Assembly: GCF_026626685.1 (NCBI RefSeq)
Contig: NZ_JAPNJX010000001.1
Span: 268,752-332,751 of the forward strand
Reading direction: 5' to 3'
DNA from: Nannocystis sp. SCPEA4
Lineage (GTDB): Bacteria; Myxococcota_A; Polyangia; Nannocystales; Nannocystaceae
Length of the DNA: 64,000 nucleotides
The notes under the pieces were generated by a model that was not told the DNA's origin, searched no databases, and saw only the letters and a list, made by a program, of their open reading frames with translations. Positions 2,257 through 64,000 of the stretch are shown one piece after another. The first letter of the stretch is position 1. Every line of letters begins with the position of its first letter. Made by a program: the position numbers and the translations under genes.

Positions 2257-2348
2257 CTCGCTGCTCCTGTACCGCGAGCATGGTGTGTTCCTGCGCAGCA
2301 TGGTAGTGTGATTGCTGGCACATCGCCTGTGCCTGAAAGGCAAAGCCC

Positions 2349-5510: not shown

Positions 5511-5683
5511 CTCCGTGTGAACGCGCTCGCCCGCGTTCGATCGAGCTCGCAGCACAGCCAATCCACCCACGCCATCAACCTGTCCCCAAGACCACCCTGT
5601 CCAAAGAGACAGCGCCTCGTACACGAGCACCAGCGCACGCCCCTCCCCGCCCGGCCACGAGCGGGGCCCGCGACGATCGTCGA

Positions 5684-18876: not shown

Positions 18877-18879
18877 CGG

Positions 18880-20960: not shown

Positions 20961-21016
20961 ATCCAACCCGCGGTCAGCGCATTCCAAGCCTGGAACCCTC
21001 AGCCCTGGAGAATTTC

Positions 21017-23110
21017 ATGCGCCGTCCTCTGCTCCTGACCGTCGGCCTCGCCCTCGCCGGCTGTAGCGGCCCGTCCGCCGAACCCACCCCGGCCAAGCCC
21101 GCGGCCGCCAAGCCCACGCCGGCGGCCGCGCCGCCCGCCGCCGCCGCCGCGCCGGAGCTCATCCCGCGCGAGGCGCTGTTCGGCAACCCCGAGCGGGCCA
21201 ACGTGCAGATCAGCCCTGACGGCAAGTACCTCAGCTGGGTCGCGCCGGTCGACGGCGTGCTCAACGTCCACGTCGCGCCGGCGAACGAGCCCGCCAAGGC
21301 GCGCGCCGTCACCAGCGACAAGGCGCGAGGCATCGTCCAGTACTTCTGGACCTTCAAGCCCGACACCCTGCTGTACCTGCGCGACACCGGCGGCGACGAG
21401 GACTTCCACCTCCACGCCGTCGACCTCGCCAGCGGCCAGAGCCGCGACCTCTCGCCGTTCCCCAAGACCCGCGCGCAGGTCAACGGCGTCAGCCACCTGC
21501 ACCCCGAGTCCGTGCTCGTCAGGATGAACGACCGCGACCCTCAGTGGCACGACCTCTACCGCGTCGACCTCGCCACCGGCGAGCGGACCCTGCTCGCCCG
21601 CAACGACAGCAAGATCGCCGGCCACATCACCGACTCCGACTTCAAGCTGCGCCTCGCCACGCGCTCGCGCGAAGACGGCGGCATCGACGTCCTCCAGCCC
21701 GACGGCAAGAACGGCTGGAAGGAGCTCGAGCAGATCCCGTTCGACGACTCGCTGAGCACCGGCTACGGCGGCTTCACCACCGACGGCAAGACCGCCTACC
21801 TCCGTGAGTCGCGCGACCGCAACACCATCGCCCTCTACGCGGTCGACCTCGACACGCGCGAGCGGAAGCTCGTGTTCGAAGATCCGCGGGCCGACATCAG
21901 CGGCGTGCTGGCCGACCCGAAGACCGGCGTGGTGCAGGCGGTCGCCGCCAACTACTTGCGCGAGGAGTGGAAGGCGGTCGACCCCGGCATCGAAACCGAC
22001 CTCAAGAAGCTGCAGGCGCTCGGTCCCGGCGTGATCAGCGTCGGCGCGCGCACGCTCGACGACAAGACCTGGATCGTCACCTACTCGGCCGCCGAGGCGC
22101 CCGCGACCTACTACCGCTACGACCGCGGGGGCGAGCCGCAGAAGTTGTTCTCGGCCCGCCCCGCGCTCGACGGCAAGCCGCTGGTGAAGCAGTGGCCGCA
22201 GGAGATCCCGTCGCGCGACGGCCTCACGCTGGTCAGCTACCTCAGCCTCCCGCTGCAGGCCGACCCCGACCAGGACGGCAAGGCCAACACGGCCGTCCCG
22301 CTGGTGCTCTACGTCCACGGCGGCCCGTGGGGGCGCGACACCTACGGCTACGCCCCCTCGCCGCAGTGGCTGGCCAACCGCGGCTACGCGGTGCTGCAGG
22401 TCAACTATCGCGGCTCGACCGGCTTCGGCAAGGACTTCGTCAACAAGTCCAACTACGAGTGGTCGGGCAAGATGCACGACGACCTGCTCGACGCCGTCAA
22501 GTGGGCCGTCAAGCAGGGCGTCACCACCGAGGACCAGGTCGCGATCATGGGCGCCAGCTACGGCGGTTACGCCACCCTGGTCGGCCTGACATTCACGCCC
22601 GACACCTTCAAGTGCGGCGTCGACGTCGTCGGCCCGTCCAACCTCAACACCCTGTTCGCCACCTTCCCGGCCTACTGGGCCAGCTTCATGCAACAGTGGT
22701 ACGGCCGCGTCGGCGACTCGCGCACCGACGAGGGCAAGAAGCAGCTGCTCGAGCGCTCGCCGATCAGCCGCGTCGACCGCATCAAGAAGCCGCTGCTGAT
22801 CGCCCAGGGCGCCAACGACCCGCGCGTCAGCCAGGCCGAGAGCGACCAGATCGTCACCGCCATGCAGGCGAAGAAGATCCCGGTCACCTACGTGCTGTTC
22901 CCCGACGAGGGCCACGGCTTCGCCCGCCCGGAGAACAACAAGGCCTTCACCGCCGTCGCCGAGGGCTTCCTCGGCGCCTGCCTCGGCGGCCGCGTCGAGC
23001 CGATCGGCAAGGACTTCACCGGATCGAGCATCACCGTCCCCGCCGGCGCCGACGGCGTATCCGGCCTGACCGCGGCCCTGCAGTCGCACACGCAGCAGAT
23101 CAAGAAGTGA
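21017..23110 (+). CDS. S9-family serine peptidase (prolyl oligopeptidase / dipeptidyl-peptidase type) lipoprotein
   Basis: Signal MRRPLLLTVGLALAGC. Catalytic GASYGGY and C-terminal alpha/beta hydrolase domain (DEGHGF). The ORF 20957.. was trimmed to the signal-peptide Met. Confidence 0.85.
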   Translation: MRRPLLLTVGLALAGCSGPSAEPTPAKPAAAKPTPAAAPPAAAAAPELIPREALFGNPERANVQISPDGKYLSWVAPVDGVLNVHVAPANEPAKARAVTSDKARGIVQYFWTFKPDTLLYLRDTGGDEDFHLHAVDLASGQSRDLSPFPKTRAQVNGVSHLHPESVLVRMNDRDPQWHDLYRVDLATGERTLLARNDSKIAGHITDSDFKLRLATRSREDGGIDVLQPDGKNGWKELEQIPFDDSLSTGYGGFTTDGKTAYLRESRDRNTIALYAVDLDTRERKLVFEDPRADISGVLADPKTGVVQAVAANYLREEWKAVDPGIETDLKKLQALGPGVISVGARTLDDKTWIVTYSAAEAPATYYRYDRGGEPQKLFSARPALDGKPLVKQWPQEIPSRDGLTLVSYLSLPLQADPDQDGKANTAVPLVLYVHGGPWGRDTYGYAPSPQWLANRGYAVLQVNYRGSTGFGKDFVNKSNYEWSGKMHDDLLDAVKWAVKQGVTTEDQVAIMGASYGGYATLVGLTFTPDTFKCGVDVVGPSNLNTLFATFPAYWASFMQQWYGRVGDSRTDEGKKQLLERSPISRVDRIKKPLLIAQGANDPRVSQAESDQIVTAMQAKKIPVTYVLFPDEGHGFARPENNKAFTAVAEGFLGACLGGRVEPIGKDFTGSSITVPAGADGVSGLTAALQSHTQQIKK

Positions 23111-27778: not shown

Positions 27779-30328
27779 ATGATCGGATCCCCGGAGCCTG
27801 GCGTGCGCAGCGGCTCGCGCCGAACCTCGCAAGCCGGGCCGCGGGCCGGCTGCTCGTGCGAGCTCCTGCTCTCGCTGTGCGCCGCCGACTCGGTCCAGGG
27901 CGTCCTGGCCGCGCACGGCCTCGACGTCGCCCGCCTGCGCGCCGTCGTCGACGAGCTGCACGCCGAGGTCGAGACCGAGCCGGCCGACTGGCGCCTGCGG
28001 ATCACCCAGCGCGGGGGCCGCGCCGCCGATCCCGACCTCGACCTCCTGCTCGCCCTCGTCCGCTCCGCCGACTCGCACGCCTACCAGCTGCTCGAGCGGG
28101 CCGGCGCCGCCTGCGGCGCCCTGCGCAAGCTGTTGATCGACCGCCTGCGCGCGCTCGAGGCCGCCGCGCTCACCGGGACAGGTCCCTCGCGCCATGTCGC
28201 ATCGGCCATGTCCTCCGAGACAGCCATGCCGCGGCGCCCCGTCGTCCAGCGCATGTCGACCCTCGCCGCCCCCGGCGAGCGCCCGGTCCGCCGCTCGCTC
28301 GCCGACGGCCGCGCAGGCGACATGTCCCCGCGGACAGGCGCCAGCGACGCCCAGCCCCGTCCCGCCCGCGGCGGCGCCCGCACCTGGCCCGAAGGCCAGC
28401 CTGCCACGCGCTCGCCTCGACCCACCGACGTCCGCACCTGGCCGGAAGACCATCCGGCCCGCGCCCGCCTCGACGCCGCCCGCACCTGGCCCGAAGACCA
28501 GCCCGATTCGCCGCGCCTGCTCACGCGCGCGCCGACCCGCACCCAGCCGCGCCTGCCCGTCCGGCCCGAGCCGGGCCGCCCGTCGGCCCTGTCCCTCAAG
28601 CCAGGTCCCAACGCCCAGGTCGCGCCGGCCAGCGAGCCCGAGCCGCGCCCGGCCCCCGCGCCCCAGCCCGAGGCCCGCAGCCACCGCCTGAGCCCGATCG
28701 ACCCGTCGGCCCTGCCGCCGCTGCACGGCCGCGAGGGCGAGCTGGCGCGCCTCGCCGACGCCGTCCTGCGCCGCTCGCCGCGCCCGCCGCTGCTCGTCGG
28801 TCCGGCCGGCAGCGGCCGCACGCTGGTCGCCAAGCACCTCGCCGGCCTGCTGCACCAGCCGGTCTTCTACCTGTCCGCGACCCGCTACGAGGACGAGGAC
28901 GGCCTGCGCGCCGACCTCGCGGCGATCGCCAAGCAGGGCGGCGTCGCCATCCTCGACGACCTCGACCGCCTCGGCGGCGACGGTCCGCCGGCGCTGCTCG
29001 GCGCCCTCGCCAAGGCCTGGTCTTCGGGACAGCCGCCGATCGTCGCCGTCGCCTCGCCCGAGGGTCAGGCCCGCCTGTGCGCCTGGGCCCCCGGCCTGGC
29101 CGCCGCCCTCGACCTCGTCACCCTCCAACCGCTCGAGGGCGACGACCTGCGCGCCGCCGTGGCCGCCGCCGCGCCCGCGGTGCTGGCCCAGCACGGCCTG
29201 TCTCTCGGGTCATGTAGCCGCCTGGCCGAGCTCGTGCGCCTGTCCGACCGCTTCCTCGCCGGCCTGGCCCAGCCCGGCCGCAGCCTCGACCTGCTCGACC
29301 TCGCCTGCGCCCGCACCGCCCGCGAGGGCCGCGGCGCCGTCCAGCGCGACACCTGGGTCGACATCGTCTGCGAGCGCAGCGGCGTCCCGCGCGAGCGCCT
29401 CGAGGGCCAGGGCCACCAGGACATGCTCGAGCTCGAGGCCGAGCTCGCGCGCAAGGTCGTCGGCCACGAGCACGCCCTCGCCGCCATCGCCCAGCTGATC
29501 CGCAGGAACCGCGCCGGCTTCGGCTCGCAGCGCCCGATCGCCACCGTCCTCCTGCTCGGCCCCAGCGGCGTCGGCAAGACCGAGATCGCCAAGGCCCTGT
29601 GCGGGGCCCTGTTCGACCGCCCCGACGCGTTCGTCCGCCTCGACATGAGCGAGTACGCCGAGGCCCACGCGGTCGCGCGGATCGTCGGCGCCCCGCCCGG
29701 CTACGTCGGCCACGAGCAGGGCGGCGCGCTGACCGACCCACTGCTCAAGCAGCCGCACTGCGTCGTCCTCCTCGACGAGATCGAGAAGGCCCACCGCGAC
29801 GTCCACCAGCTGCTGCTGCAGGTGTTCGACGAGGGCCGCCTCACCGACGGCCGCGGCCGCACCATCGACTTCCGCCACGCCGCGATCATCATGACCTCGA
29901 ACCTCGGCGCCACCTGCCTCGACGCCACCGGCGACGCCCGCCTCGACGAGGCACGCGTGCTCGAGGCCGCCCGCGCCGCCTTCCCGGTCGAGCTGTGGAA
30001 CCGCATCGAGGCCCCGCTGGTGCTCCACCCGCTCGGCGGCGAGCAGCTGGCCCGGATCTGCGCCCGCCTGGTCCGCGCCTCCTCCGACCGCCTGCTGCGC
30101 GAGCGCGGCATCCGCTACCGCCTCACCGAGGCCGCCACCCGCCACGTCGTCTCGCTGTGCGGAAAAGACATGTCCCTTGGGGCACGTCCCTTGCGACATG
30201 TCCTTACGCGCAGCGTCGAGGCGCTCCTGGCCGACGCGATCCTGCGCGGCCAGATCCGCGCCGGCATGCAGGTCGAGGTCGACCTCGACCTCCACGGCGC
30301 GCTGTGCCTGCTGGCCTCGCGCGCCTAG
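27779..30328 (+). CDS. ClpA/ClpB-family (Hsp100) AAA+ ATPase-like protein with a degenerate first AAA module and a repetitive linker
   Basis: Clp_N-like N-terminus. Then a low-complexity (RTWPEDQP)n linker. AAA-1 has Walker A GPAGSGRT. AAA-2 has GPSGVGKTEIAKAL, VVLLDEIEKAH, sensor, and a C-terminal GARPLRH motif. Confidence 0.75.
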   Translation: MIGSPEPGVRSGSRRTSQAGPRAGCSCELLLSLCAADSVQGVLAAHGLDVARLRAVVDELHAEVETEPADWRLRITQRGGRAADPDLDLLLALVRSADSHAYQLLERAGAACGALRKLLIDRLRALEAAALTGTGPSRHVASAMSSETAMPRRPVVQRMSTLAAPGERPVRRSLADGRAGDMSPRTGASDAQPRPARGGARTWPEGQPATRSPRPTDVRTWPEDHPARARLDAARTWPEDQPDSPRLLTRAPTRTQPRLPVRPEPGRPSALSLKPGPNAQVAPASEPEPRPAPAPQPEARSHRLSPIDPSALPPLHGREGELARLADAVLRRSPRPPLLVGPAGSGRTLVAKHLAGLLHQPVFYLSATRYEDEDGLRADLAAIAKQGGVAILDDLDRLGGDGPPALLGALAKAWSSGQPPIVAVASPEGQARLCAWAPGLAAALDLVTLQPLEGDDLRAAVAAAAPAVLAQHGLSLGSCSRLAELVRLSDRFLAGLAQPGRSLDLLDLACARTAREGRGAVQRDTWVDIVCERSGVPRERLEGQGHQDMLELEAELARKVVGHEHALAAIAQLIRRNRAGFGSQRPIATVLLLGPSGVGKTEIAKALCGALFDRPDAFVRLDMSEYAEAHAVARIVGAPPGYVGHEQGGALTDPLLKQPHCVVLLDEIEKAHRDVHQLLLQVFDEGRLTDGRGRTIDFRHAAIIMTSNLGATCLDATGDARLDEARVLEAARAAFPVELWNRIEAPLVLHPLGGEQLARICARLVRASSDRLLRERGIRYRLTEAATRHVVSLCGKDMSLGARPLRHVLTRSVEALLADAILRGQIRAGMQVEVDLDLHGALCLLASRA

Positions 30329-35331: not shown

Positions 35332-35384
35332 GCGCCTGTCTGAGCCAAGCGCGCGACCGAAGACGCGGGGCCGTGGAGAGCTGG

Positions 35385-35590
35385 GTGACGGCGGGCACGG
35401 AGCGGCGGAGCGGGTCCCTCGCTTTCGGCGGGGCCCTCCCAGGCAACGTGCTCGGCGCCCTCGGGCTTCGATGTTGATCTGTCGTTGAGGACAGGTTCGT
35501 TCGTGCCTGGCGGACGATGGCGCCTGCGCGCGGTTGCCTGCGGCCCCTCCCGCCGGCGTCCCACTCCGCCGCTCCGTGCCCGCCTGCGAA
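35385..35590. repeat. MITE-like repeat element, copy C (inverted internal orientation relative to A/B)
   Basis: TIRs ggcgggcacggagcggcggagcgg (35391-35414) and ccactccgccgctccgtgcccgcc (35561-35584). The internal sequence is the reverse complement of the copy A/B core. Confidence 0.7.
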
Positions 35591-35905
35591 GAGCGTCGCC
35601 GGCCCCGCTTGTCGCCATGCGGCGAGCGCGGCACCACCGACTGCGGTGTCGCATGCGCCATGTCCAAGAGGACATGCTCTCCGGGACAACGTGCTCGGCG
35701 CCCTCGGGCTTCGATGTTCATCTGTCGTTGAGGACAGGTTCGTTCGTGCCTGGCGGACGATGGCGCCTGCGCGCGGTTGCCTGCGGCCCCTCCCGCCGGC
35801 CCCGCTCGTCGCCTGGCGGTGAGCGCGGCACCACCGACTGCGTGTCGCACGCGCCATGTCCACGAGGACATGCTCTCCGGGACAGAGCGTGCTCCGTCGA
35901 GCATG
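35445..35905. repeat. Tandem duplication, 241-bp unit x ~1.9, overlapping copy C and extending toward the queA stop
   Basis: aacgtgctcggcgccctcgggcttcgatgtt...ccatgtccaagaggacatgctctccgggac recurs at 35445 and 35686. The second unit lacks the TIR. Confidence 0.7.
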
Positions 35906-35915
35906 GCCCCTGCGC

Positions 35916-42284: not shown

Positions 42285-42839
42285 ATGCGCAAGCTCCTTC
42301 CGGTCTTCATGGCCATCGCCTTCTCGCTGCCCGCCTGCTCCTTCTCGTATTCGTCGTCGAGCCGCTCCGGAACGGCGCCAGGCACCACCAACGGGACGAA
42401 GAACGGCAAGGGCAAGCCGGCGCGCCAGGCCGCGGTCGACACGTCGAGCACACCTGCTCCGGCTCCCGCTGCCAAGCCCGCCCCCAAGCCTGCCCCCGAG
42501 CCCGAGCCCGCCACCACCACTCCCGAGCCCGCGCCGGAGCCGACCGAAGAGCCCACGCCGGGCCGCGCCACCGACCCCAAGCCGGGCCGCGCCACCGACC
42601 CCAAGCCGGGCCGCGCCACCGACCCCACGCCGGCCCGCCTCGATCCGGCGACCCAGGTCGCCCCGCGTGACGGCACGCAGAAGGCCGGCCTCAGCCTCAC
42701 TACCGGCGAGTCCAAGCCCAAGACCAGCACCATCTCCAACGGCGGCGCTGCGCCCACGACCAAGCCCGCCACCCTGACCGGCACCCCCAAGCCGACCGAG
42801 CCGCCCAAGAACGGGGCCAAGCTGGCCGCGCCGCAGTGA
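42285..42839 (+). CDS. Pro/Thr/Ala-rich lipoprotein with 3 perfect 24-bp tandem repeats (PGRATDPK x3)
   Basis: Lipobox LPAC. The repeats ccgggccgcgccaccgaccccaag x3 at ~42553-42625 are seen in the sequence. Confidence 0.55.
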   Translation: MRKLLPVFMAIAFSLPACSFSYSSSSRSGTAPGTTNGTKNGKGKPARQAAVDTSSTPAPAPAAKPAPKPAPEPEPATTTPEPAPEPTEEPTPGRATDPKPGRATDPKPGRATDPTPARLDPATQVAPRDGTQKAGLSLTTGESKPKTSTISNGGAAPTTKPATLTGTPKPTEPPKNGAKLAAPQ

Positions 42840-42870
42840 GCCGGCGACCGTTCGTCCGCCCTCAGTGAAC

Positions 42871-42902
42871 GAAGGGCCATGACCGCAAGGTCATGGCCCT
42901 TC
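42871..42902 (+). terminator. Intrinsic terminator-like hairpin after the lipoprotein gene
   Basis: gaagggccatgacc-gcaa-ggtcatggcccttc, a perfect 14-bp stem, followed by attcat. Confidence 0.6.
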
Positions 42903-42996
42903 ATTCATGTCCGCGGGGACAGCTCTCAGGAGCGCGAGCCGGCGGCGGCTCGAGCCGCGGTCGGCCGGCTGGCTGCCATGTCCCCCGGGACAGCTC

Positions 42997-43656
42997 TCAG
43001 GAGCGCGAGCCCGTGCGCGCGTGGGCGCGGCGGCCGGGCACGTCGGCGCGCTGCATCGGCGCCGGCGGCAGCTCGAGCCGCGGGTCGGCCGGCTGGCTGC
43101 GGCGCAGCACGTCGAGCGAGACCTCGTCGAACTCGTCGTCGGCGTCGTCCTCCTCGAGGTCCTCACGGGCGGTGAAGCGGCGGCGGAGGATCAGCGCCTC
43201 GTCGGCCGCGTCGGCCTCGTCGCCCATCTCGCCGAGCTCCTCCTCGTCGACCTCGTCGAGCTCGGCCGGATCGGCGCTCGGCGGCTCGAGCTCGAGCTGG
43301 GCCGGGCTGGCGCGCCGCTTGCGAGCCGCGGGGGCGGACTTGCCGGCCGGGGCGTTGAGGCTCGCGCGCAGCTCGACGCCCGGACGGAAGTCGATCGTGA
43401 AGGCCGCATCGATCGTCATCGGCTCGAGCGTCCGCGGGTTGACGCCCTTGCGAGCGGAGCGCTTCTTCTTGGTGAAGGTGCCGAAGCCGGGGAACGTGAA
43501 GCGCGGGCTCTGGGCCCGCGTCACCCTCGCCTTGACGAAGTAGGCGGCCATCTCCCCGAACGCGATCTCGAGGATCTGCTGCACGCACTTCTTCGTGATG
43601 TCCGGCGGCAGATCACGGTTGCGTGCGATTTTTTCGATGAGTTCAGCCTTCGTCAT
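42997..43656 (-). CDS. HU/IHF-family DNA-binding protein with a long acidic/low-complexity C-terminal tail
   Basis: N-terminal ~90 aa MTKAELIEKIA...FPGFGTFTKKKRSARKGVNPRTLEPMTIDA has the HU fold signature. The tail overlaps ~72-bp repeats at 42906-43105. Confidence 0.7.
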   Translation of the reverse strand: MTKAELIEKIARNRDLPPDITKKCVQQILEIAFGEMAAYFVKARVTRAQSPRFTFPGFGTFTKKKRSARKGVNPRTLEPMTIDAAFTIDFRPGVELRASLNAPAGKSAPAARKRRASPAQLELEPPSADPAELDEVDEEELGEMGDEADAADEALILRRRFTAREDLEEDDADDEFDEVSLDVLRRSQPADPRLELPPAPMQRADVPGRRAHARTGSRS

Positions 43657-44619: not shown

Positions 44620-45080
44620 GTTGACCGTGCGAGCGCGCGGCGGCTCCGCGGACGGCGGGGTCGCGGCGCGTGATCTCGGTGCCTCTTGCGGCGGCGACGA
44701 CTCCCAGTCTGCAGAGCCCCGCTGCGCGCGCCCTCGCGTCGTCTCCTGCGGCGGCGACTCCCGCTGCGCGCGCCCGCGTGTCGTCTCCGGCTGCGACGAC
44801 TCCCAGTCCCCGGAGCCCGGCTGCGCGCGCCCGCGTGTCGTCTCCTGCGGCGGCCACGGCTCCCAGTCTCCGGGGTCGGGCTGCGGCGACGGCTCCCAGT
44901 CCTCGGGGCCCGGCTGCGCGCGACCGCGTGTCGTCTCCTGCGACGGCTCCCAGTCCGCAGGGCCCGGCTGCGCGCGCCCTCGCTTCGTCTCCTGCGGCGG
45001 CGGCCCCGAGGCCGCCGGGCCCGGTTGTGTGCGCGCTCGCGGCTCGGACTCGCGGGCGGATCTGGCCTGGTCTTCGGGCC
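44620..45080. repeat. Degenerate tandem repeat array, ~45-90-bp units x ~6-7
   Basis: Units of the form cctgcggcggcgactcccagtc...ggctgcgcgcgcccgcgtgtcgtct. On the minus strand they translate to (PQETTRGRAQ...DWEPS)n, either an N-terminal extension of UDG or an intergenic array. Confidence 0.7.
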
Positions 45081-45323
45081 ATGTCGGTGCGCGCACGCCC
45101 GCGGCGGCGCGATCGGTCACCTGTCCGGACGACCAGGTGCTGTCCGGAGCGGGCGATCGCTCCTCCGGCGCGGAACTCGGCGCGCCGGCGCGACGCGGAG
45201 AGGACGCGGCGGACACGTACGCCAAACCCCGGAACTCCCGGAGGTGGCGCAGGTGGGCGGCGAACTGAACCGCCAGCCGCCGGGTCGCGTCGCGTCGATC
45301 GCCTTCCACTGCGAGATCCTCCG

Positions 45324-46642
45324 TCAGCTCGTCGCGGCCAGCGCGTCGAGCAGCCAGGCCGCCAGCGCCGCCTTGGCGATCGGCGGGCCCGAGGCGCGCA
45401 CGGCGATCGCGTCGCCGTCGCGCGCCAGCAACAGGCCGGCGTTGGTCGCCGACGCGAAGCCGACCCCGGGCGCGCCGACGCGGTTGACGAAGATCGCGTC
45501 GGCGCCCTTGGCCCGCAGCTTGGCCGAGCCGAGCCGGATCAGCTCCTGCTGCAACCTGTCCTCGGGGCCATCCTCGACCGTCTGCGCGGCGAACCCGAGG
45601 AAGCGCGAGCGCGGGGCGCCCGGCGCCGCGCCGCGGCCGAAGCGGGCCGTCAGCGCGGCGAGGATGTCGGGCGCCGCCCGCCAGCCGAGCGTCGGCAGCG
45701 TCGCCAGCAGCTCCACCTTCTCGAGCTTGCGCGCGGCGCCGCCGTCGATCTCGAGGTCCTGCACCGCCGCCACCATGGCCACCCAATCACATGGCCCTTG
45801 AGACAGCTCGTTCTCCAGCGCCGCCTGCATCTCGGCCGCGGTCTCGACGTCGACGCGGCGCACCCCCGCCGGGGTGACCAGCTCGACCGGCCCGGCCACG
45901 AGCGTCACCGCGGCGCCGGCGCGCTGGGCCGCCTCGGCCAGCGCGAAGCCCATCGCCCCGGTCGACGCGTTGGTGACGAAGCGGACCGGATCGATGTACG
46001 TGCGCGTCGGCCCGGCCGACACCAGCACGCGCTTGCCGGCCCACGGCCCGCGGCTCGCTGCGCCGACGCCGAGCCGCGCCAGCGCGGCGGCGACGATCAG
46101 CGGCGGGTCGATCATGCGGCCCTCGCCGATCCACCCGCACGCCAGCTGCCCGCGATCGGGCCCGACGAACTCGGCCCCGCGGGCGCGCAGCGTCGCCAGG
46201 TTGTCCTGCGTGGCCGGGTGGCGCCACATGTTGGTGTTCATCGCCGGCGCCCACAGCACCGGCGCGCGCGTGGCCAGCAGCACCGTCGCCGCGAGGTCGT
46301 TCGCCAGCCCGTGGGTCGCGCGCGCCAGCAGGTCGGCGGTGGCCGGCGCGACGACCACCAGGTCGGGCCAGTCGGCGAGCTCGATGTGGCCGACGTGGCC
46401 CTCCTCCTCCGGATCGAGCAGGCGCGTGCGCACCGGCCGGGTCGAGACCGTCGCCAGCGACAGCGCGCTGACGAACGCCTCCGCCGCCGGCGTCATCACC
46501 ACCTGGACCTCGCAGCCGGCGGCGACGAACGCCCGCACCAATTCCGGCGCCTTGTAGGCCGCGATCCCGCCGCTGACGATCAGCAGGACGCGACGGCCCC
46601 GCGGACGTGTCCCCTGGGACATGTCCGTGGCGCCAGCCTCGG

Positions 46643-46646
<4 letters not shown>
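45324..46646 (-). CDS. coaBC: Bifunctional phosphopantothenoylcysteine decarboxylase / phosphopantothenate-cysteine ligase
   Basis: Flavoprotein domain [20 protein letters not shown]...PAMNTNMW, then CoaB domain. The alternative Met at 46622 lies inside a GGACATGTCC motif. Confidence 0.9.
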
Positions 46647-47800
<1,154 letters not shown>

Positions 47801-47804
47801 GTCT

Positions 47805-48569
47805 TTAGCTGTTCTTGGAGACAGGTACTTCGGGACAGGGCGCTTCGGACCTGTCCCCAGAGTCAGCATTCACGGCGGCCGCGGCGGCGTTGTCGGCGTA
47901 GCCGGGCGCGGCGTCGACGTAGCCGGCGCGGACCAGGGCCTCACGGGTGAGCGCGGGCGCGGCAGCCCGGCCGGCCTCGGCCTCGGAGCCGAGCAGGCGG
48001 GCGACGTAGCGCGCCAGCAGGTCGACCTCGAGGTTGAGCGCGTCGCCCACCTTCAGGTCGGCCAGGGTCGTGGCCGCGAGCGTGTGCGGGATCAGGCCCA
48101 CGGCGAACCCGCGCGGGTCGACGGCGTTGACGGTGAGGCTGACGCCGTCGACGCACACGCTGCCCTTGACCGCGATGTAGCGGGCCAGCTCGGCCGGGAC
48201 GTCGAACCACATCTCGACCGCGTCGCCGCGGGCGACCCGGCTGCGCACGCGCGCCAGGCCGTCGACATGGCCAGACACGAGATGACCGCCGAGCGCGTCG
48301 CCGAGCCGCAGCGCCGGCTCGAGGTTGACGCGGCTGCCCGGCCGCAGTTCGCCGAGGGTGGTGACCGCGAGCGTCTCGAACGCGGCTTCGACAGTAAAGT
48401 CGTTGGCGGTCGAGGCGACCACGGTGAGACACACGCCCGAGATCGCGACGCTGGCGCCGAGGCTGCGATCGCCCTCCGACAGCGCGTAGCGGATCACGAA
48501 GGTGCGTCGCTGCGCGCCAGGGATCACGCGCTCGACCGTGCCGACGCCGCGCACGAGGCCGGTGAACAT
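47805..48569 (-). CDS. ribE: Riboflavin synthase (alpha subunit) with a ~50-aa C-terminal extension
   Basis: MFTGLVRGVGTVERV...GHLVSGHVDG lumazine-binding repeats. The tail ...ADSGDRSEAPCPEVPVSKNS is encoded by palindromic-motif DNA. Confidence 0.85.
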   Translation of the reverse strand: MFTGLVRGVGTVERVIPGAQRRTFVIRYALSEGDRSLGASVAISGVCLTVVASTANDFTVEAAFETLAVTTLGELRPGSRVNLEPALRLGDALGGHLVSGHVDGLARVRSRVARGDAVEMWFDVPAELARYIAVKGSVCVDGVSLTVNAVDPRGFAVGLIPHTLAATTLADLKVGDALNLEVDLLARYVARLLGSEAEAGRAAAPALTREALVRAGYVDAAPGYADNAAAAAVNADSGDRSEAPCPEVPVSKNS

Positions 48570-48629
48570 GCGGGGGTTATGGCACAGATCACCGGCCGGT
48601 GCGACGGCCCGCAGAGCCCGCCGGATGCG

Positions 48630-49865
48630 TCAGATCTCGCGTCCTGCGGGATCGTCGGCGGCGTTCGCCGGCGGGCCGAGGACGGTCAGGCCGTCGACCC
48701 CGACGTCGGTGCGCAGCAGCGGACGAAGCCGCGTGGCGTCGGCGACCGCCGCGACCTTGAGGCCGGCGGCCGCGGGTCGTCCGTCACCCAGCACGATCGG
48801 CGCATGGAACCAATAGAACCGCTGCCACGCGGCGGCGGCGACGAAGCTGGCGATCATCCGCCCGCCGCCCTCGACCAACAGCGAACGTAGCGGCAGCTTG
48901 CCCAGCGCCTGCAACGCGCCGGCGACGTCGACCCGGCCCTCGGCGTCGCCGTCGAGCTCGATGCGCCGCAGGCCGAGCTCCTCGACCGCCCGCTGCGCCG
49001 CGGCGGGAGCGCGGCTGGTGTGCAGCACCACGGTGCCCGGCCGCAGCAACGTCGGCCGGCGCACCGCCCCGGCCACACGCAGCCCGCTGTCGAAGATCAC
49101 CGGCAGCGGGTCGACGCCGGTCACCATGCGCACCGACAGCGCGGGATCGTCGCGCAACACGGTATCGGCGCCCACGGCGATCGCGTGGTGACGGGCGCGC
49201 AACCAGTGTCCGAGGCGCCGCGCCGGCTCGCCGGTGATCCACTTGCTGTCCCCCGAGCCAGCCGCGATCTGGCCGTCGAGCGACGACGCGATCTTCAGCG
49301 TGACGAACGGCAGCCGCGTCCTCTCGTGGTGCAGGTAGTGCTCGTGCGCAGACGCGCACGCGCCCGCGAGCACGCCCTCACGCACGCGAAGGCCGGCCGC
49401 GCGCAGCAGTTCGATCCCCCGACCGCCGGCGTGCACCGCGGGATCGAGGCTGCCGATCACGACCTCGGCGACGCCGGCGGCGATCAGCGCCCCGGTGCAC
49501 GGCGGCGTGCGGCCGAAGTGCGAGCACGGCTCGAGCGTGACGTAGACCGTCGCCCCGCGCGCGGCCTCGCCGGCCTGCTGCAGCGCGGCGACCTCGGCGT
49601 GCGGGCCTCCGGTGACCGCGCTGCGCCCGGCGCCGACGACCTTCTCGCCCTGCACGACGATCGCGCCGACGCACGGGTTCGGGTAGGTCGCGCCGGTGCC
49701 CGAGCGGGCCAGCGCCACGGCCGCGCCCATCAGTCGCACGTCGCGCGCTGCCGGCGACTCGTCTGCGACCGGCGCGCTCGCCAGCGCCGCTGCGATCGCC
49801 CTCGGGCCGTCGTCTGCGGTCCCGCTCGCGCCGCCGAGCAGGTCAGCGAGCTCGGGGTGGATCAA
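48630..49865 (-). CDS. ribD: Bifunctional diaminohydroxyphosphoribosylaminopyrimidine deaminase / 5-amino-6-(5-phosphoribosylamino)uracil reductase
   Basis: PNPCVGAIVV...HAEVAAL...LEPCSHFGRTPPC deaminase motifs plus a reductase domain. Conservation begins ~45 codons in. The true start may be ~49736; the TTG at 49865 overlaps the nrdR stop. Confidence 0.9.
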   Translation of the reverse strand: MIHPELADLLGGASGTADDGPRAIAAALASAPVADESPAARDVRLMGAAVALARSGTGATYPNPCVGAIVVQGEKVVGAGRSAVTGGPHAEVAALQQAGEAARGATVYVTLEPCSHFGRTPPCTGALIAAGVAEVVIGSLDPAVHAGGRGIELLRAAGLRVREGVLAGACASAHEHYLHHERTRLPFVTLKIASSLDGQIAAGSGDSKWITGEPARRLGHWLRARHHAIAVGADTVLRDDPALSVRMVTGVDPLPVIFDSGLRVAGAVRRPTLLRPGTVVLHTSRAPAAAQRAVEELGLRRIELDGDAEGRVDVAGALQALGKLPLRSLLVEGGGRMIASFVAAAAWQRFYWFHAPIVLGDGRPAAAGLKVAAVADATRLRPLLRTDVGVDGLTVLGPPANAADDPAGREI

Positions 49866-50479
49866 TTCACCTCGCTCTCCGGCGACGCAGCCGGCGCGGA
49901 CCTGTCCCCAGAGTCAGCCTCGTCCTCGCCCTCGGGGAAAGCCGCCAGCCGGGTCGGCGCGCTGAGTTGGATCTGCCCGCGGGCGTCGATCTCGAACAGC
50001 GTGCGCTGGCCCTCGGGGCTGGTGTGCGCGGCCTTCTCCATCTCGTTCAGCAGGTGCACGAACTCGTCGACCGCCTGGTACTCGCCGTGGGTGGCGACGT
50101 AGCGCACGTAGGCGACGGCGTCGAGCGGGCGCAGCAGGCGGAGGATCCGGTCGGCGATCTCCTCGGCGCGGATCTCCTTCTCTCCGCGCGTCGCGGCCCA
50201 CAGCTCGACCACGCCGAGCAGCGCCTCGATCTGCTCGTCATCGACGGGGCGCTTGCGGCAGACCGCCTGCAGCGAGGCGCGGATCTTGTTGCGATCGAAC
50301 AGCTGCTTGCCTCCGCCGCGCTTGAGCACGATCGGCGGCGTGGTCTCGATGCGCTCGTAGGTGGTGAAGCGGTGGTTGCAGTCGAGGCACGCGCGGCGCC
50401 GCCGGATCGCACCGCCGTCCCGACTCTCCCTCGAGTCGAGGACCTTGATGCTCCCGCTGCGGCAGACCGGGCAGAGCAA
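49862..50479 (-). CDS. nrdR: Transcriptional repressor NrdR with a ~55-aa C-terminal extension
   Basis: MLCPVCRSGSIKVLDSRESRDGGAIRRRRACLDCNHRFTTYE zinc ribbon + ATP-cone. The extension ...EADSGDRSAPAASPESEVN is encoded by the same 21-bp motif found at the ribE 3' end. Confidence 0.9.
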   Translation of the reverse strand: MLCPVCRSGSIKVLDSRESRDGGAIRRRRACLDCNHRFTTYERIETTPPIVLKRGGGKQLFDRNKIRASLQAVCRKRPVDDEQIEALLGVVELWAATRGEKEIRAEEIADRILRLLRPLDAVAYVRYVATHGEYQAVDEFVHLLNEMEKAAHTSPEGQRTLFEIDARGQIQLSAPTRLAAFPEGEDEADSGDRSAPAASPESEVN

Positions 50480-50480
50480 C

Positions 50481-50921
50481 CTACCCCCCGGGCTCCAGCT
50501 TCTCGACTCGCCGGGCGTGGCGCCCCCCGGCGAAGCGGGCGTCGAGGAAGGTCCTGAGCAGGACCTTCGCCAGTTCGACGCCGACGACCCGCGCGCCCAG
50601 ACAGAGCACGTTGGCGTCGTTGTGTTCGCGGGCCATCGCCGCGCTGAACGGATCCATCACCACCGCGGCGCGGATGCCCGCCTGCTTGTTGGCGGCCATG
50701 GCCATGCCCTGACCTGTCCCACAGACCAGGAGGCCGAGCGAGCCCGGCTCGGCGCGCACGTGACGGGCGACCTCGACCGCGACGTCGGGGTAGTCGACCG
50801 ACTCGCTGGCCGCGGCCGGTCCGCTCTCGCTGGCGACCTCGTGGCCGAACGCGGCCACGGCGGCCGCGAGCTCGCGCCGGAGGTCGATCGCCGCGTGGTC
50901 GCTGCCGAGGTGCACGCGCAT
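50481..50921 (-). CDS. rpiB: Ribose-5-phosphate isomerase B (RpiB/LacAB family)
   Basis: MRVHLGSDHAA...LLVCGTGQGMAMAANKQAGIRAAV. The ORF 50481..51371 was trimmed to this Met; the upstream part is out-of-family. Confidence 0.8.
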   Translation of the reverse strand: MRVHLGSDHAAIDLRRELAAAVAAFGHEVASESGPAAASESVDYPDVAVEVARHVRAEPGSLGLLVCGTGQGMAMAANKQAGIRAAVVMDPFSAAMAREHNDANVLCLGARVVGVELAKVLLRTFLDARFAGGRHARRVEKLEPGG

Positions 50922-50928
50922 GGTCGGT

Positions 50929-52167
50929 CTAGCCTGCCCGCTTGAGCACGAGGCACGCGTTGGTGCCGCCGAAGCCGAAGCTGTTGGAGAGGGCGACGTC
51001 GACCGCGACGCGGCGCGCCTCGTGCGGCACGTAGTCGAGGTCGCAGTCGGGGTCGGGGTCGTCGAGGTTGATGGTCGGCGGAAGCACGTTGTGGTGCAGC
51101 GCGAGGGCGCAGATCGCCGCCTCGAGCCCGCCGGTGGCCCCGAGCAGGTGGCCGTGCATCGACTTCGTCGACGACACCGCCAGCTTGCGCGCGTGCTCGC
51201 CAAACACCGCCTTGATCGCGCCGGTCTCGGTCGCGTCGGCGCTGGTCGAGGTGCCGTGCGCGTTGATGTAGCCGACCGTCTCGGGGGCGAGGCCCGCGTC
51301 GCGCAACGCGAGCCGCATGCACCGCTGCGCGCCCTCGCCGTCGGGCGACGGCGCGGTGATGTGGTGCGCATCCGAGGTCGCCGCGTAGCCGACGATCTCG
51401 GCGTAGATCCGGGCCCCGCGGGCCTTCGCGCGCTCCCACTCCTCGAGGATCACGAGACCGGCGCCCTCGCTGAGGACGAAGCCGTCGCGGCTGAGGGTGA
51501 ACGGCCGCGACGCCTTGGTGGGCTCGTCGTTGCGGGTCGACAGCGCGCGCATCGACGCGAACCCGCCGACCGCCAGCGGCGACACCGTGGCCTCGGTGCC
51601 GCCGGCGATCATCACGTCGGCGCCGCCGCGGGCGATCAGGTGGAACGCCTCGCCGATGCTGTGCGCACCGGTCGAGCAGGCCGACACGTGGCTCATGTTC
51701 GGCCCGCGGTAGTTGTGGCGGATCGAGATCTGCCCGGGCGCGAGGTTGACGATGATCGCCGGCACGAAGTACGGGCTGATGCCGAGGCGCGGGCCCTTCT
51801 CGCGCAGCGAGTCGTGCGTGGCCTCGAGGACCGGCAGACCGCCGAGGCCGGCGCCGACGTAGACGCCGAAGCGCTCGGGGTCGTCGGGCGAACCGAGCTG
51901 CGCGTCCTCGACGGCCATCGCCGCGGCCGCGATCGCGTACTGGATGAAGAGGTCCATCTGCCGGACCTCCTTCTTGGCGATCCAGCGGGTCGGATCGAAG
52001 TTCCGGACCTCACCCGCGATCCGCGTCGACAAGTTGCTGGCGTCGAACCGCGTGATCGGCCCGATCCCCGACTGCCCTGCGCACAAGCTCCGCCAGTTGT
52101 CGTCGTTGCCGACGCCCAGCGGGCTGATGAGCCCCACTCCCGTGATCGCGACCCTGCGCCCCGTCAC
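50929..52167 (-). CDS. fabF: Beta-ketoacyl-ACP synthase II
   Basis: Active-site Cys in [16 protein letters not shown] and the GHLLGATG His motifs. Full-length FabF colinearity. Confidence 0.95.
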
Positions 52168-60858: not shown

Positions 60859-60922
60859 TCATTCTTAGCTCGCGGCCACGAGGGCCCCGGGCGGGCGCCC
60901 GGAGCCCGCGTCACGCCGCTGC

Positions 60923-62665
60923 TCACATCGGCTGGACGCCGCAGTCGTCGACCTCGCTCGGGATGCAGCCCTCGCAGTCCCAGCGGAAGTTGTCGATCAG
61001 CGCCGCGGTCGACAGGTACTGGTCGGACATGTCGGCGAGGAAGAAGCCGACCGTGATCTCGGCGCCCGGCTGCACGCCGCCCTTGGCGGTGAACCAGTCG
61101 GAGCAGGCGTGGCTCTCGAAGCCGGTGCCGGACAGCTGCGGCTCGTTGTTGGTGTAGCCCTGCTGGATGAAGTACGGGTCGAGCGCCGTGATGGTGATCG
61201 GCAGGCCCTTGGTCGGGTCGTTCGGGTCCGGGATGAAGGTGACGTTGCCGCTGTACGGGTCGACCGGCGGGTTCGCGTTCGGGTTGTCGGGCGTCGGATC
61301 GACCTGGTAGGCGATCAGCAGGTCGTTGAACGACGAGTCGACCCACGTCGGCCACTCGGCCGAGCAGAACGCGAACTCGAAGGTGTAGCCGAAGGTCCCG
61401 GGCGGCACGACGGTCTTGAAGCTGAAGTAGATGCGGTCGTTGCCGTCGGCGTAGGTCATCTCCCACTGCGCCTGGATGGTGTCGGAGCAGTCGTTGTCGC
61501 CGGCGCCGTTGTCGCAGTTCTTGAAGGGGGTGCCGCCGGCGCCGTTGTTGCTGCCGTTGACGGCCTTGAACGGCAGGGGCAGCGGCATGTCGTCGGGGTT
61601 GCCGTTGTCGGTGGTGCCCTGGTTGTTGGGCGCCTCGATCACGACGCCCTCGCCGTTCGGCGGCGCGATCTCGCCGTTCGAGATGATGAGGAAGGCGTTG
61701 CCCTCGCGCGGGCTGTAGAGGCGCTGCGGCGGCGTGTTCGCGTCGTTGTCGTGATCGTACGTGTAGTTGCCGTAGCCCTTCGTCACCTGCCAGCTGACGT
61801 TGACCGGGTTCGAGTGCTGGAAGTCGGTCGTGACGATCGAGTTGGCGAGCGTATCGTTGCAGATACCGATCGCCTTCAGCATGTTGGTCTTGTCGCCCTT
61901 GTTGCTGATCACGTCGGGCGCGTCGTCGCACACGATGTAGTTGGCCGGGGCCTGGCAATTCGCCGGGAAGAACGTGGTGCAGTTGTTGAGGCAGAAGTCA
62001 CCGGGGCCGCCGTCGACCTGGTTGCCGTCGTCGCACTCCTCGCCGCGCTCCTTCTTGCCGTTGCCGCACATCGGCGGCGTCAGCGTGCAGTCGGGCTCGC
62101 AGCCGTCGCCCGGCACGTCGTTGCCGTCGTCGCACGCCTCGGGGTTCTCGGTCATGCCGTTGCCGCAGTCCTGCGTCGGCGTCGCGGTCTGGCAGTCGGC
62201 GCTGCACTCGTCCCCGTCCTCGGTGTTGCCGTCGTCGCACGCCTCGCCCTGCTCGACGTTCATGTTGCCGCACACCGCCGTGACGTTGCAGGTCGGCTCG
62301 CAGCCGTCGCCGGGCACGTCGTTGCCGTCGTCGCACTCCTCGGCGCCCTCTTGCACGCCGTTGCCGCACTCCGGCGTCACGGCGGTATCACCCTCCGTGT
62401 CCGCCGCCGTCGTCGTCGTGCCGTCGGTCGTGCCCTGGGTCTCGCCCATGCTCACGCCCGTCGTCGGCGTCGTCGTCGTCGTCGGCCCGGCATCGCTGTC
62501 CGAGTTGCTGCCGGGCGTCGGGTTGTTGGTGGTGATGTTCGTCGAGGCGTCTCCTTCGGTCTGGTTGACGCCGGTCACGTTGTCCACGCTGTCGCCGCAG
62601 GCGACCAGCGCGGTGGCACAGAGGCCGGTGGAGAGCAGTCGTACGATGGGAGTCTTCATGGTCAT
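60923..62665 (-). CDS. Secreted lipoprotein with four 'Myxococcus cysteine-rich repeats' and a conserved ~330-aa C-terminal domain
   Basis: Lipobox LVACG. Repeats CGNGVQEGAEECDDGNDVPGDGCEPTC etc. (C-x-E-x-CDDGN-x-GDGC). The C-terminus ends ...FRWDCEGCIPSEVDDCGVQPM. Confidence 0.8.
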   Translation of the reverse strand: MTMKTPIVRLLSTGLCATALVACGDSVDNVTGVNQTEGDASTNITTNNPTPGSNSDSDAGPTTTTTPTTGVSMGETQGTTDGTTTTAADTEGDTAVTPECGNGVQEGAEECDDGNDVPGDGCEPTCNVTAVCGNMNVEQGEACDDGNTEDGDECSADCQTATPTQDCGNGMTENPEACDDGNDVPGDGCEPDCTLTPPMCGNGKKERGEECDDGNQVDGGPGDFCLNNCTTFFPANCQAPANYIVCDDAPDVISNKGDKTNMLKAIGICNDTLANSIVTTDFQHSNPVNVSWQVTKGYGNYTYDHDNDANTPPQRLYSPREGNAFLIISNGEIAPPNGEGVVIEAPNNQGTTDNGNPDDMPLPLPFKAVNGSNNGAGGTPFKNCDNGAGDNDCSDTIQAQWEMTYADGNDRIYFSFKTVVPPGTFGYTFEFAFCSAEWPTWVDSSFNDLLIAYQVDPTPDNPNANPPVDPYSGNVTFIPDPNDPTKGLPITITALDPYFIQQGYTNNEPQLSGTGFESHACSDWFTAKGGVQPGAEITVGFFLADMSDQYLSTAALIDNFRWDCEGCIPSEVDDCGVQPM

Positions 62666-62864: not shown

Positions 62865-62957
62865 TCACATCGGCTGCACGCCGCAGTCGTTGACCTCGTT
62901 CGGGATGGGAACCTCGCAATCCCACCGGACGTTGTCGAGCAGCGCCACCGGGGTCGG
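62865..62957 (-). pseudogene. C-terminal fragment (~30 codons) of a third paralogue of the Cys-rich-repeat lipoprotein
   Basis: Translates to ...PVALLDNVRWDCEVPIPNEVNDCGVQPM, matching the C-terminus ...AALIDNFRWDCEGCIPSEVDDCGVQPM of the 60923..62665 gene. No upstream coding body remains. Confidence 0.5.
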
Positions 62958-63127
62958 CGCGACGGGTCCCATCCTACGAATCGCCGCGCGACCGCGATGA
63001 TTCGCCGCGATTGCGCGGGAGACGACAATGCACAGACGTCTCGCGCGCGGGGAGCTCGCACGCACTGCGAGCGCAAGCATCATTTCGCCTGCGGCCACGA
63101 GGCCCCGGGCGGGTGCCCGGGGCCGCG

Positions 63128-64000
63128 TCACGCCGTGGTGATCACATCGGCTGGACGCCGCAGTCGTCGACCTCGCTGGGGATGCAGCCCTCGCAGTCCC
63201 AGCGGAAGTTGTCGAGCAGCGCCGCCGTCGACAGGTACTGGTCGGACATGTCGGCGAGGAAGAAGCCGACCGTGATCTCGGCGCCCGGCTGCACGCCGCC
63301 CTTGGCGGTGAACCAGTCGGAGCAGGCGTGCTGCTCGAAGCCCGTGCCGGCCAGCTGCGGCTCGTTGTAGGTGTAGCCCTGCTGGATGAAGTACGGGTCG
63401 AGCGCCGTGATGGTGATCGGCAGGCCCTTGGCCGGGTTGTTCGGGTCGGGGATGAAGGTGACGTTGCCGCTGTACGGGTCGACCGGCGGGTTCGCGTTCG
63501 GGTTGTCCGGCGTCGGGTCGACCTGGTAGGCGATCAGCAGGTCGTTCCACTGGGTGTCGACGAAATTCGGCCACTCGGCCGAGCAGAACGCGAACTCGAA
63601 GGTGTAGCCGTAGGTCCCGGCCGGCACGACGGTCTTGAACGTGAAGTAGATGCGGTCGTTGCCGTCGGCGTTGGTCATCTCCCACTGCGCCTGGATGGTG
63701 TCGGAGCAGTCGTTGTCGCCGACCCCGTTGTCGCAGTTCATGAACGGCGTGCCGCCGGCGCCGTTGTTGCTGCCGTTGACGGCCTTGAACGGCGGAGGCA
63801 GCGGCATGTAGTCGGGGTTGCCGTTGTCGGTGGTGCCCTGGTTGTTGGGCGCCTCGATGACGACGCCCTCGCCGTTCGGCGGCGCGATCTCGCCGTTCGA
63901 GATGATCAGGAACGTGCTGCCCTCGCGCGGGCTGTAGAGGCGCTGCGGCGGCGTGTTCGCGTCGTTGTCGTGATCGTACGTGTAGGTGCCGTAGCCCTTC
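63128..64000 (-). CDS. Paralogue of the Cys-rich-repeat lipoprotein, C-terminal domain only (the N-terminus lies beyond the window end)
   Basis: About 85% identical at the protein level to the C-terminal domain of 60923..62665 (…TFEFAFCSAEWP…DNFRWDCEGCIPSEVDDCGVQPM). The 3' flank (~150 bp) is also duplicated. Confidence 0.75.
   Translation of the reverse strand, partial: EGLRHLHVRSRQRREHAAAAPLQPARGQHVPDHLERRDRAAERRGRRHRGAQQPGHHRQRQPRLHAAASAVQGRQRQQQRRRRHAVHELRQRGRRQRLLRHHPGAVGDDQRRRQRPHLLHVQDRRAGRDLRLHLRVRVLLGRVAEFRRHPVERPADRLPGRPDAGQPEREPAGRPVQRQRHLHPRPEQPGQGPADHHHGARPVLHPAGLHLQRAAAGRHGLRAARLLRLVHRQGRRAAGRRDHGRLLPRRHVRPVPVDGGAARQLPLGLRGLHPQRGRRLRRPADVITTA

Follow-up and report, generated by a model that had tools for sequence, protein, structure and literature searches.

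We analyzed a 64,000-nucleotide stretch of the genome of Nannocystis sp. SCPEA4 (positions 268,752 to 332,751 of contig NZ_JAPNJX010000001.1; below, "the window" means this whole stretch). We found that a 21-mer present twice in it, GGACCTGTCCCCAGAGTCAGC, is an imperfect member of a lineage-specific palindrome family, TGTCC-N4-GGACA / GGACAKGTCC. The two copies lie inside the 3′ ends of nrdR and ribE, two genes of the minus-strand operon fabF-rpiB-nrdR-ribD-ribE-ribBA-coaBC. The family has about 70 sites in the window, or about 1 per kb, which is 20 to 300 times the expectation. We favor the reading that the motif is an RNA stem-loop signal, similar to repetitive extragenic palindromic (REP) elements, that stands at gene ends and cistron junctions and that is embedded in the ends of nrdR and ribE and translated there. 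According to this reading, to which we give a probability of roughly 55%, the protein tails are older than the signal and the two copies arose by conversion. The pair of identical 21-mers is a modest curiosity, explained by family membership and probable conversion, and the family is the more interesting result.

A palindrome family in the window

The initial annotation of this DNA had reported two exact copies of the 21-mer in the 3′ portions of the minus-strand ribE and nrdR open reading frames (ORFs), both translated as ADSGDRS. We found the same two copies, at 47847 to 47867 and 49898 to 49918, and no further copy in the window with up to 3 mismatches. In 100 dinucleotide-preserving shuffles of the window, the 21-mer was never matched. 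Both copies are on the minus (coding) strand in the same frame, GCT GAC TCT GGG GAC AGG TCC. The copy at 49898 to 49918 covers codons 187 to 193 of nrdR and positions −53 to −33 from the TTG start of ribD, and the copy at 47847 to 47867 covers codons 235 to 241 of ribE and positions −67 to −47 from the ATG of ribBA. The remark that the sequence is free of stops in several frames also held, with five of six frames open. In contrast, the exact 21-mer is not a genome-wide element. A scan of 185,579 species-representative genomes found a single exact copy, at the nrdR end of N. radixulma, and we therefore dropped the idea of a high-copy exact repeat. What recurs genome-wide is a degenerate palindrome family of 10 to 14 nucleotides (nt).

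The sense RNA of the 21-mer reads G-CUGACU-CUGG-GGACAG-GUCC, with left arm CUGACU, loop CUGG, and right arm GGACAG. It can be decomposed into a family hairpin with two arm mismatches plus a GGACAGGTCC unit; counted as pairs, these are one A·A mismatch and one U·G pair in an imperfect hairpin fused to a GGACAGGUCC unit. The A in the arm mismatch is position two of the Asp codon. The closing pair of the nrdR arm is U·G in the window and C-G in L003 and L010 (L numbers denote relatives' loci that we compared at the DNA level).

We found 17 exact TGTCC-N4-GGACA sites in the 64 kb and 39 sites with at most one mismatch, against 0.05 and 1.5 expected, and no other spacing of this hairpin arrangement was enriched in the window. 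GGACA stood immediately before TGTCC at 9 exact sites (32 with at most one mismatch), and TGTCC-N9-TGTCC occurred at 5 (24 with at most one mismatch). The N4, N0, and N9 enrichments together thus describe arrays in which GGACATGTCC-N4 repeats every 14 nt. At the one-mismatch level, there are 39 hairpin-type and 45 unit-type sites where about 2 to 3 are expected. Only the paired arrangements are enriched: solo [AC]TGTCC half-sites are at chance, with 42 observed versus 43.9 expected. The 4-nt spacer is not conserved, and stems often reach 7 bp. In the position matrix, nothing in the flanks is conserved beyond GGAC/GTCC, and no GTAG-like tetranucleotide was seen.

The motif is dense (0.56 to 0.83 per kb; about 0.03 expected) in all relatives with an NrdR at least about 63% identical. 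We found no TGTCC-N4-GGACA site in the syntenic 20-kb loci of Pseudenhygromyxa sp. WMMC2535 (L026) and of a more distant deltaproteobacterial metagenome-assembled genome (L027), and these two loci mark the phylogenetic boundary of the motif. Both share the gene order yceD-rpmF-plsX-fab-rpiB-nrdR-ribD-ribE-ribBA-coaBC, and their NrdR and RibE tails differ. No description of TGTCC-N4-GGACA / GGACAKGTCC was found in the searchable literature, which is no proof of novelty.

We found motif sites at orthologous positions in fabF, coaBC, a Memo-like gene, nrdR, and ribE. Five lineages have the identical coaBC codons GAT GGC CCC GAG GAC AGG TTG. We computed codon usage from the roughly 16,000 codons of the window and asked how often rare codons are kept. 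In the comparison with L005, 4 of 4 rare codons in motif sites were kept, versus 22 of 153 elsewhere (P = 0.0006), and in the comparison with L001 the counts were 4 of 4 versus 39 of 97 (P = 0.03). Three phased units, GACATGTCC-CTTG-GGGCACGTCC-CTTG-CGACATGTCC, lie at 30166 to 30207 in a Clp-family ATPase ORF (27833 to 30328, plus strand). They encode ..DMSLGARPLRHVL.., the conserved "GARPLR" segment of the ClpB_D2-small domain, with a run of rare codons, and the RNA of this array folds at z = −3.3. We rejected the idea that this ORF reads through into junk, as the array is inside the conserved domain and coding resumes after it.

The two 21-mers agree at 21 of 21 positions in the window, 20 of 21 in N. 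radixulma (TCC for TCT), 19 of 21 in L001, and about 11 of 21 in L003 and L010. The nrdR version is the more widely conserved of the two, and the ribE sites of L003 and L010 carry other variants of the motif (CAGGTGTCC and GGACATGTAC). Across the motif region, we found no indels in alignments of the ribE and nrdR tails with their orthologues, and the site is occupied in all relatives of clade A. The identity of the copies goes beyond the core: they share the loop and the deviations in the arms, and, past a 3-nt indel, another GCGCC. Judged from these alignments, the near-identity of the two copies is an event at the level of the genus Nannocystis. Most likely, a short tract of the older nrdR version was copied (gene conversion) onto a ribE site that already existed and was more degenerate.

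Placement of the motif and its possible role

About half of the family sites fall in the non-coding-like 17% of the window, an approximately 5-fold enrichment. Half-sites were present in 17 of 32 tandem or convergent regions versus 0 of 5 divergent promoter regions (region-level P of about 0.04). In seven intergenic regions, the motif begins 0 to 6 nt past the upstream stop codon or overlaps it. Related motifs do occur at gene ends elsewhere, several arrays starting 0 to 6 nt after a stop and one ORF stopping inside an array, at 3234 to 3236. The family is not always at gene 3′ ends: about half of its sites are within coding sequence, at any position. Among the mismatches in the core stem, G·U on the sense strand outnumbered A·C by 25 to 11, which is weak evidence for pairing in RNA. 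Arrays folded better than shuffled sequence (z = −2.7 and −3.3). Because of the placement after stops and at junctions, the absence from divergent promoters, the fixed tetraloop geometry, and the sense-strand excess of G·U, we favor a REP-like RNA hairpin.

According to this model, the motif would act at the nucleic acid level by forming a REP-like stem-loop in the transcript. The stem-loop would mark gene ends and cistron junctions and might affect mRNA 3′-end formation, processing, or stability or the coupling of cistrons. In nrdR and ribE, the signal would sit in the last ~20 codons, with ADSGDRS as a by-product; it would be placed inside these codons because the operon has no intercistronic space.

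Several observations weigh against such an RNA-level role, which is what we infer from the above. By itself, the nrdR copy forms a weak hairpin (−6 kcal/mol; z = −0.8), and the whole nrdR-ribD junction folds no better than shuffled sequence (z = +0.4). The GGACAKGTCC units are unable to form a hairpin alone, the flanking M/K pair covaries weakly, and non-palindromic variants show no strand bias in the window. About half of the sites, both 21-mers included, are intragenic without a preferred position, unlike classical REPs. The depletion in divergent regions is based on 5 regions of 770 nt in total, and the statistics on rare-codon conservation come from few sites.

The main rival is that the palindromes are double-stranded DNA sites of a lineage-specific dimeric protein, nucleoid associated or global, that would bind cooperatively at the 14-bp spacing. 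Such a protein would explain why the half-site sequence is strictly conserved and not merely its complementarity, why a fixed N4 goes with an unconserved spacer, why arrays are phased at 14 bp, and why intragenic sites are kept at orthologous positions. The lack of strand bias, the weak covariation of the flanks, and the units that cannot fold alone also fit a DNA site. However, the sites are enriched behind stops and in convergent and tandem spacers and are missing from all five divergent promoter regions, and G·U exceeds A·C on the sense strand. The half-sites are enriched in both the N0 and the N4 geometry, which are incompatible with each other, and no candidate protein was identified. From the sequence evidence, we consider binding by such a protein unlikely, although it deserves to be kept in view. 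As for known sites, operators of the CRP/FNR type, the MrpC site (GTGTC-N8-GACAC), and NrdR boxes misfit in geometry or sequence, and the abundance of the motif argues against an ordinary regulon.

We regard it as improbable that the motifs are selfish or neutral, that is, remnants of mobile REPs or miniature inverted-repeat transposable elements (MITEs) or products of biased repair or conversion, with the identity of the 21-mers a functionless recent conversion. As this would predict, the two copies are nearly identical only within the genus and the family is confined to one clade, and interspersed repeats of 200 to 240 bp bear the same hairpins (921 to 1338, 5489 to 5876, and 35332 to 35915). 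In contrast, the positions are kept across lineages with proteins 65 to 80% identical and against a very strong bias in codon usage and in GC content at third codon positions (GC3). A conserved Clp domain contains arrays of synonymous rare codons. Signatures of insertion are absent, and the orthologues align without indels across the ribE array.

A still poorer candidate is a riboflavin-specific operator or internal promoter element common to ribD and ribBA. Both copies lie upstream of riboflavin genes, ending −33 and −47 from the starts, no flavin mononucleotide (FMN) riboswitch was detected in the window, and the identity beyond the generic core, in the loop and the arm deviations, suggests a specific shared requirement. 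The extended 21-mer is confined to the two rib-operon positions, but only within the genus. However, the core motif occurs about 70 times in the 64 kb beside unrelated genes, the ribBA/coaBC junction included. The ribE site differs from the nrdR site in L003, L005, and L010, N. radixulma has one exact copy only, and no sigma-70-like promoter was found.

Several other places in the window carry the motif. The ORF at 2343 to 3236 (plus strand) ends inside an array at 3225 to 3260, ..ACC ATG TCC GCA TGA ACATGTCC TGATGG CCATGTTCC, which supplies its last codons and its stop codon. At 42839 to 42996, two hairpins, CTGTCC-cggg-GGACAT and CTGTCC-ccgc-GGACAT, begin 3 nt past the stop of the HU gene (43000 to 43611, minus strand). 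A separate canonical GC-rich hairpin with a T-rich tail follows downstream of them. The post-stop motif hairpin of HU is also present in N. radixulma and L003. Segments of about 300 nt at 60865 to 61164 and 63084 to 63383 (also 62865 to 62950) are 89% identical and belong to neighboring minus-strand paralogues; in both, a GGACATGTCG unit lies 107 nt from the stop. The interspersed repeats of ~200 to 240 bp have a TCCGCCGCTCCGTGCCCGCC core in common and bear motif hairpins CTGTCTctttGGACAG...GGACAGGTTG, with two tandem copies at 5.5 to 5.9 kb (196-nt period) and two at 35.3 to 35.9 kb spaced 243 nt apart. These repeats may be MITE-like carriers of the motif.

The nrdR and ribE ends and other features of the window

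The synteny of the operon is kept in all relatives recovered. A very close relative is N. radixulma, with 204 of 205 residues of NrdR identical and RibE 98% identical. The nrdR ORF (49862 to 50479, minus strand) encodes 205 residues, with a Zn ribbon at 1 to 42 and an ATP-cone at 50 to ~137. After the ATP-cone come a clade-conserved tail at about 150 to 170, a variable acidic linker, the 21-mer, and the Shine-Dalgarno-like sequence GGAGAGCGAGG for ribD. The TGA stop of nrdR overlaps the TTG of ribD (TTGA here); in relatives, we found NTGA/GTGA or an upstream overlapping ATG. The ribD ORF (48630 to 49865, minus strand) accordingly overlaps the nrdR stop by 4 nt; its N-terminal ~40 residues are conserved in relatives, including PEL(A/S)(D/E)LL at the N terminus. 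The ribE ORF for riboflavin synthase (47805 to 48569, minus strand) encodes 254 residues, and its lumazine-binding domains end at residue 183. The conserved tail peptide LTREALVRAGYVD at 207 to 219, a variable segment, the 21-mer, a motif array, and the TAA stop follow. This TAA is 4 nt before the ATG of ribBA (46643 to 47800, minus strand), and it overlaps the ribBA start in other lineages. The start of RibBA, MSETT (ATG at 47800 to 47798), is conserved in all relatives.

Beside the ribE copy, two degenerate motif units lie at 47819 to 47842 on the minus strand in a 14-nt phase with it. On the plus strand, they read AGACAGGTAC (47819 to 47828) and GGACAGGGCG (47833 to 47842). Their sense strand, CCCTGTCCC and ACCTGTCTCC, is translated within EAPCPEVPVS and includes the rare codons TGT, GTA, and CCT. 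Relatives have equivalent units at the ribE end (ETCPKEPVSEDKS and similar). The predicted hairpin GGGGACAGGU/ACCUGUCUCC at this end folds at z = −1.9. At the ribBA/coaBC junction, a third motif site of the operon, the pair GGACGTGTCC-CCTG-GGACATGTCC, lies at 46603 to 46626 (minus strand), 17 nt past the ribBA stop, where it falls among the first 15 codons of coaBC. Its hairpin is predicted to be strong (z = −2.7) and is kept in N. radixulma, L001, and L003. The ATG within GGACATGTCC is a possible alternative start of coaBC.

We found that the codons of the 21-mer region are rare by window usage: GCT is 1.3% of Ala, TCT is 0.8% of Ser, AGG is 1.5% of Arg, and TGT is 8% of Cys. The nrdR site reads GCT GA(C/G) nnn nnG GAC AGG in the window, N. 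radixulma, L001, L003, L005, and L010, so that a GCTGA(C/G)-N5-6-GGACAGG core is conserved in these relatives together with its rare codons. Relatives of clade B have GAG GAC ATG (TCC/CTC) at this site. Among NrdR and RibE homologues, the tail variants are D-R-S, D-M-S, D-R-F, D-M-Y, and D-R-A. The alternation of Arg and Met matches GGACAGG versus GGACATG, that is, the G/T variation of GGACAKGTCC, and AGG was present at the nrdR site in every DNA-sequenced relative with Arg there. A Shine-Dalgarno-like sequence for ribD, GGAG/GAGG, falls on the codons of the final NrdR residues (ESE, EGE). Only the last 19 to 20 codons look constrained at the nucleotide level. The rare codons and the Arg (AGG)/Met (ATG) switch that follows GGACAKGTCC support the view of the initial annotation that the 21-mer is a nucleic-acid-level repeat that is read through, with ADSGDRS as a by-product. 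It is scarcely credible that, instead, selection on the two proteins maintains ADSGDRS as a peptide motif with a function of its own. Both tails do show wide conservation of D-R-S, but the copies are identical even at synonymous positions and use the rarest codons. The swaps of Arg for Met and among Ser, Phe, Tyr, and Ala are nonconservative as protein but follow the DNA motif, which is abundant in noncoding DNA too.

Compared with classical homologues, NrdR and RibE each have some 50 extra residues. Of the 205 residues of NrdR, solved NrdR structures cover only 1 to 149/156 in alignment, and the last Pfam lumazine-binding domain of RibE stops at residue 183 of 254. The long ORFs recur in N. 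radixulma and several metagenome relatives, and therefore they are not a sequencing artifact. We found GC3 of 0.9 to 1.0 along both extensions, dropping only at the 21-mer; segmentation by GC3 ended the coding-type stretch at 47871 and 49919, the edges of the two 21-mers. SPEGQRTLFEIDARGQI, after the ATP-cone of NrdR, is near-invariant in 32 homologues (Nannocystaceae-like genomes and metagenomes), and the (V/L)TRExLxRAGY(L/V) tail peptide is conserved in 29 RibE homologues. Relatives without the motif in the NrdR tail, which ends ...GEPGDAT in them, keep the tail. The tails of ~50 residues are genuine protein, largely conserved as such, and they are mostly older than, and independent of, the present motif copies. 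Thus, the excess length that had been noted in both proteins stands, but the 21-mer did not create it: GC3 and protein conservation extend up to the 21-mer, and the tail is kept without the motif. Aligned with orthologues, the tails proved to be conserved as protein, which speaks against their creation by the repeat, and the final codons follow the DNA motif, as expected for a nucleic acid repeat. The alternative that the tails are untranslated intergenic spacers of 150 to 280 bp miscalled as ORF ends has next to nothing in its favor beyond the fall of GC3 within and after the ribE 21-mer, and we rejected it because there are no in-frame stops before 49862 (nrdR) or 47805 (ribE), all relatives have overlapping or abutting stop and start codons (overlapping at nrdR-ribD and 4 nt apart at ribE-ribBA here), and GC3 and protein conservation persist through most of the tails.

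We searched the region for known RNA and promoter elements. There was no Rfam match at the gathering threshold for an FMN riboswitch in the window, and no RFN (RF00050) match at an E value of ≤10 in 45000 to 52000. No other Rfam family matched at the gathering threshold in the whole window or at an E value of ≤10 in 45 to 52 kb, and ARAGORN found no tRNA in the window. A consensus scan of the nrdR-ribD and ribE-ribBA junctions gave no sigma-70-like promoter and no terminator-like site.

Elsewhere in the window, tandem repeats at 44689 to 45061 (six copies, spacing of ~42 to 93 nt) encode a Pro/Ala/Ser-rich low-complexity stretch, and four copies of another repeat lie at 5858 to 6034 (spacing of ~33 to 39 nt). 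A low-GC island at 18877 to 21028 (50 to 55% GC versus ~72% elsewhere) encodes a 591-residue AIPR-family protein (PF10592; 19085 to 20860, plus strand). This gene is probably a horizontally acquired abortive-infection or defense gene.

Implications and comparison with known systems

A dense, phased palindrome of a single lineage, kept against extreme codon bias inside conserved genes, is a clear case of dual coding. Dual coding implies a factor that reads the signal, be it a DNA-binding protein or one that acts in RNA processing or termination. Sister genera have the same operon but not the motif, so comparative genomics could point to this factor. The nrdR-ribD and ribE-ribBA junctions are compact test beds. 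We suggest, tentatively, that Nannocystis-like Myxococcota have an undescribed, clade-restricted "second code," in which selection would keep a palindrome of fixed geometry (14-nt phase, ~1 per kb) at orthologous positions, even in conserved domains, by forcing rare codons. The palindrome would in this way shape C termini and be read by a lineage-specific RNA- or DNA-binding factor at gene ends and junctions.

For annotation, this means that in these genomes of 72% GC a nucleic acid signal overlaps ORF ends and starts, and gene boundaries near arrays need care. The motif brings in spurious ATG codons (as in GGACATGTCC) and "junk" residues that are translated. For NrdR and RibE, the long tails should nevertheless be kept; under read-through, the predicted C-terminal peptides are ...EADSGDRSAPAASPESEVN for NrdR and ...ADSGDRSEAPCPEVPVSKNS for RibE.

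We compared the family with known systems. HIP1 (GCGATCGC) of cyanobacteria is likewise a very short palindrome strongly over-represented in the coding and noncoding DNA of one lineage. In contrast to the Nannocystis motif, it is a single octamer without N4 hairpin geometry, 14-nt arrays, or an association with stop codons. Rickettsia palindromic elements (RPEs) resemble the 21-mers in that a palindromic repeat is translated and adds residues to otherwise conserved proteins. However, RPEs are insertions of 100 to 150 bp that are seen as indels, whereas here the element is 21 nt at an ancient site with no indel. We ruled out an in-frame insertion of the RPE type, since ribE and nrdR orthologues align without indels.

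DNA uptake sequences (DUS of Neisseria) and uptake signal sequences (USS of Pasteurellaceae) share with the family a density of ~1 per kb, clade specificity, conserved coding positions in reading frames that tolerate them, and inverted pairs behind genes. They differ in being asymmetric 9- to 12-mers whose single copies are over-represented, while the Nannocystis half-sites are at chance. The lack of enrichment of solo half-sites (see above) ruled out an uptake signal.

The tuberculosis Rho-independent terminator (TRIT) motif of Mycobacterium tuberculosis, found with RNIE, is closer. It too is a hairpin with a conserved sequence, specific to its lineage, that stands just past stops in a genome rich in GC and has no U tract. 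We found no T runs behind motif hairpins in the window, so that these do not qualify as intrinsic (Rho-independent) terminators. Unlike TRIT, the Nannocystis motif is also found inside genes and at junctions within operons, places where one would not expect termination, and it is arrayed and much more frequent.

REPs and the bacterial interspersed mosaic elements (BIMEs) built from them in Enterobacteria and Pseudomonas are short, imperfect, stem-loop-capable palindromes that occur in high copy number and in arrays, as does the Nannocystis motif. They stand in transcribed spacers behind stops and between codirectional or convergent genes and are rare between divergent genes; the Nannocystis sites follow this pattern in part, being enriched in noncoding DNA and absent from the five divergent regions. 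REP/BIME stem-loops in mRNA stabilize upstream cistrons, as in malE-malF, and REPs within ~15 nt of a stop codon can lower translation. The Nannocystis family differs in its core of 10 to 14 nt (20 to 40 nt in REPs), its strict 14-nt phase, and a density roughly ten times higher. It also differs in that about half of its copies are inside ORFs, where they use rare codons and keep orthologous positions across genera, and in that no GTAG-type flank was seen.

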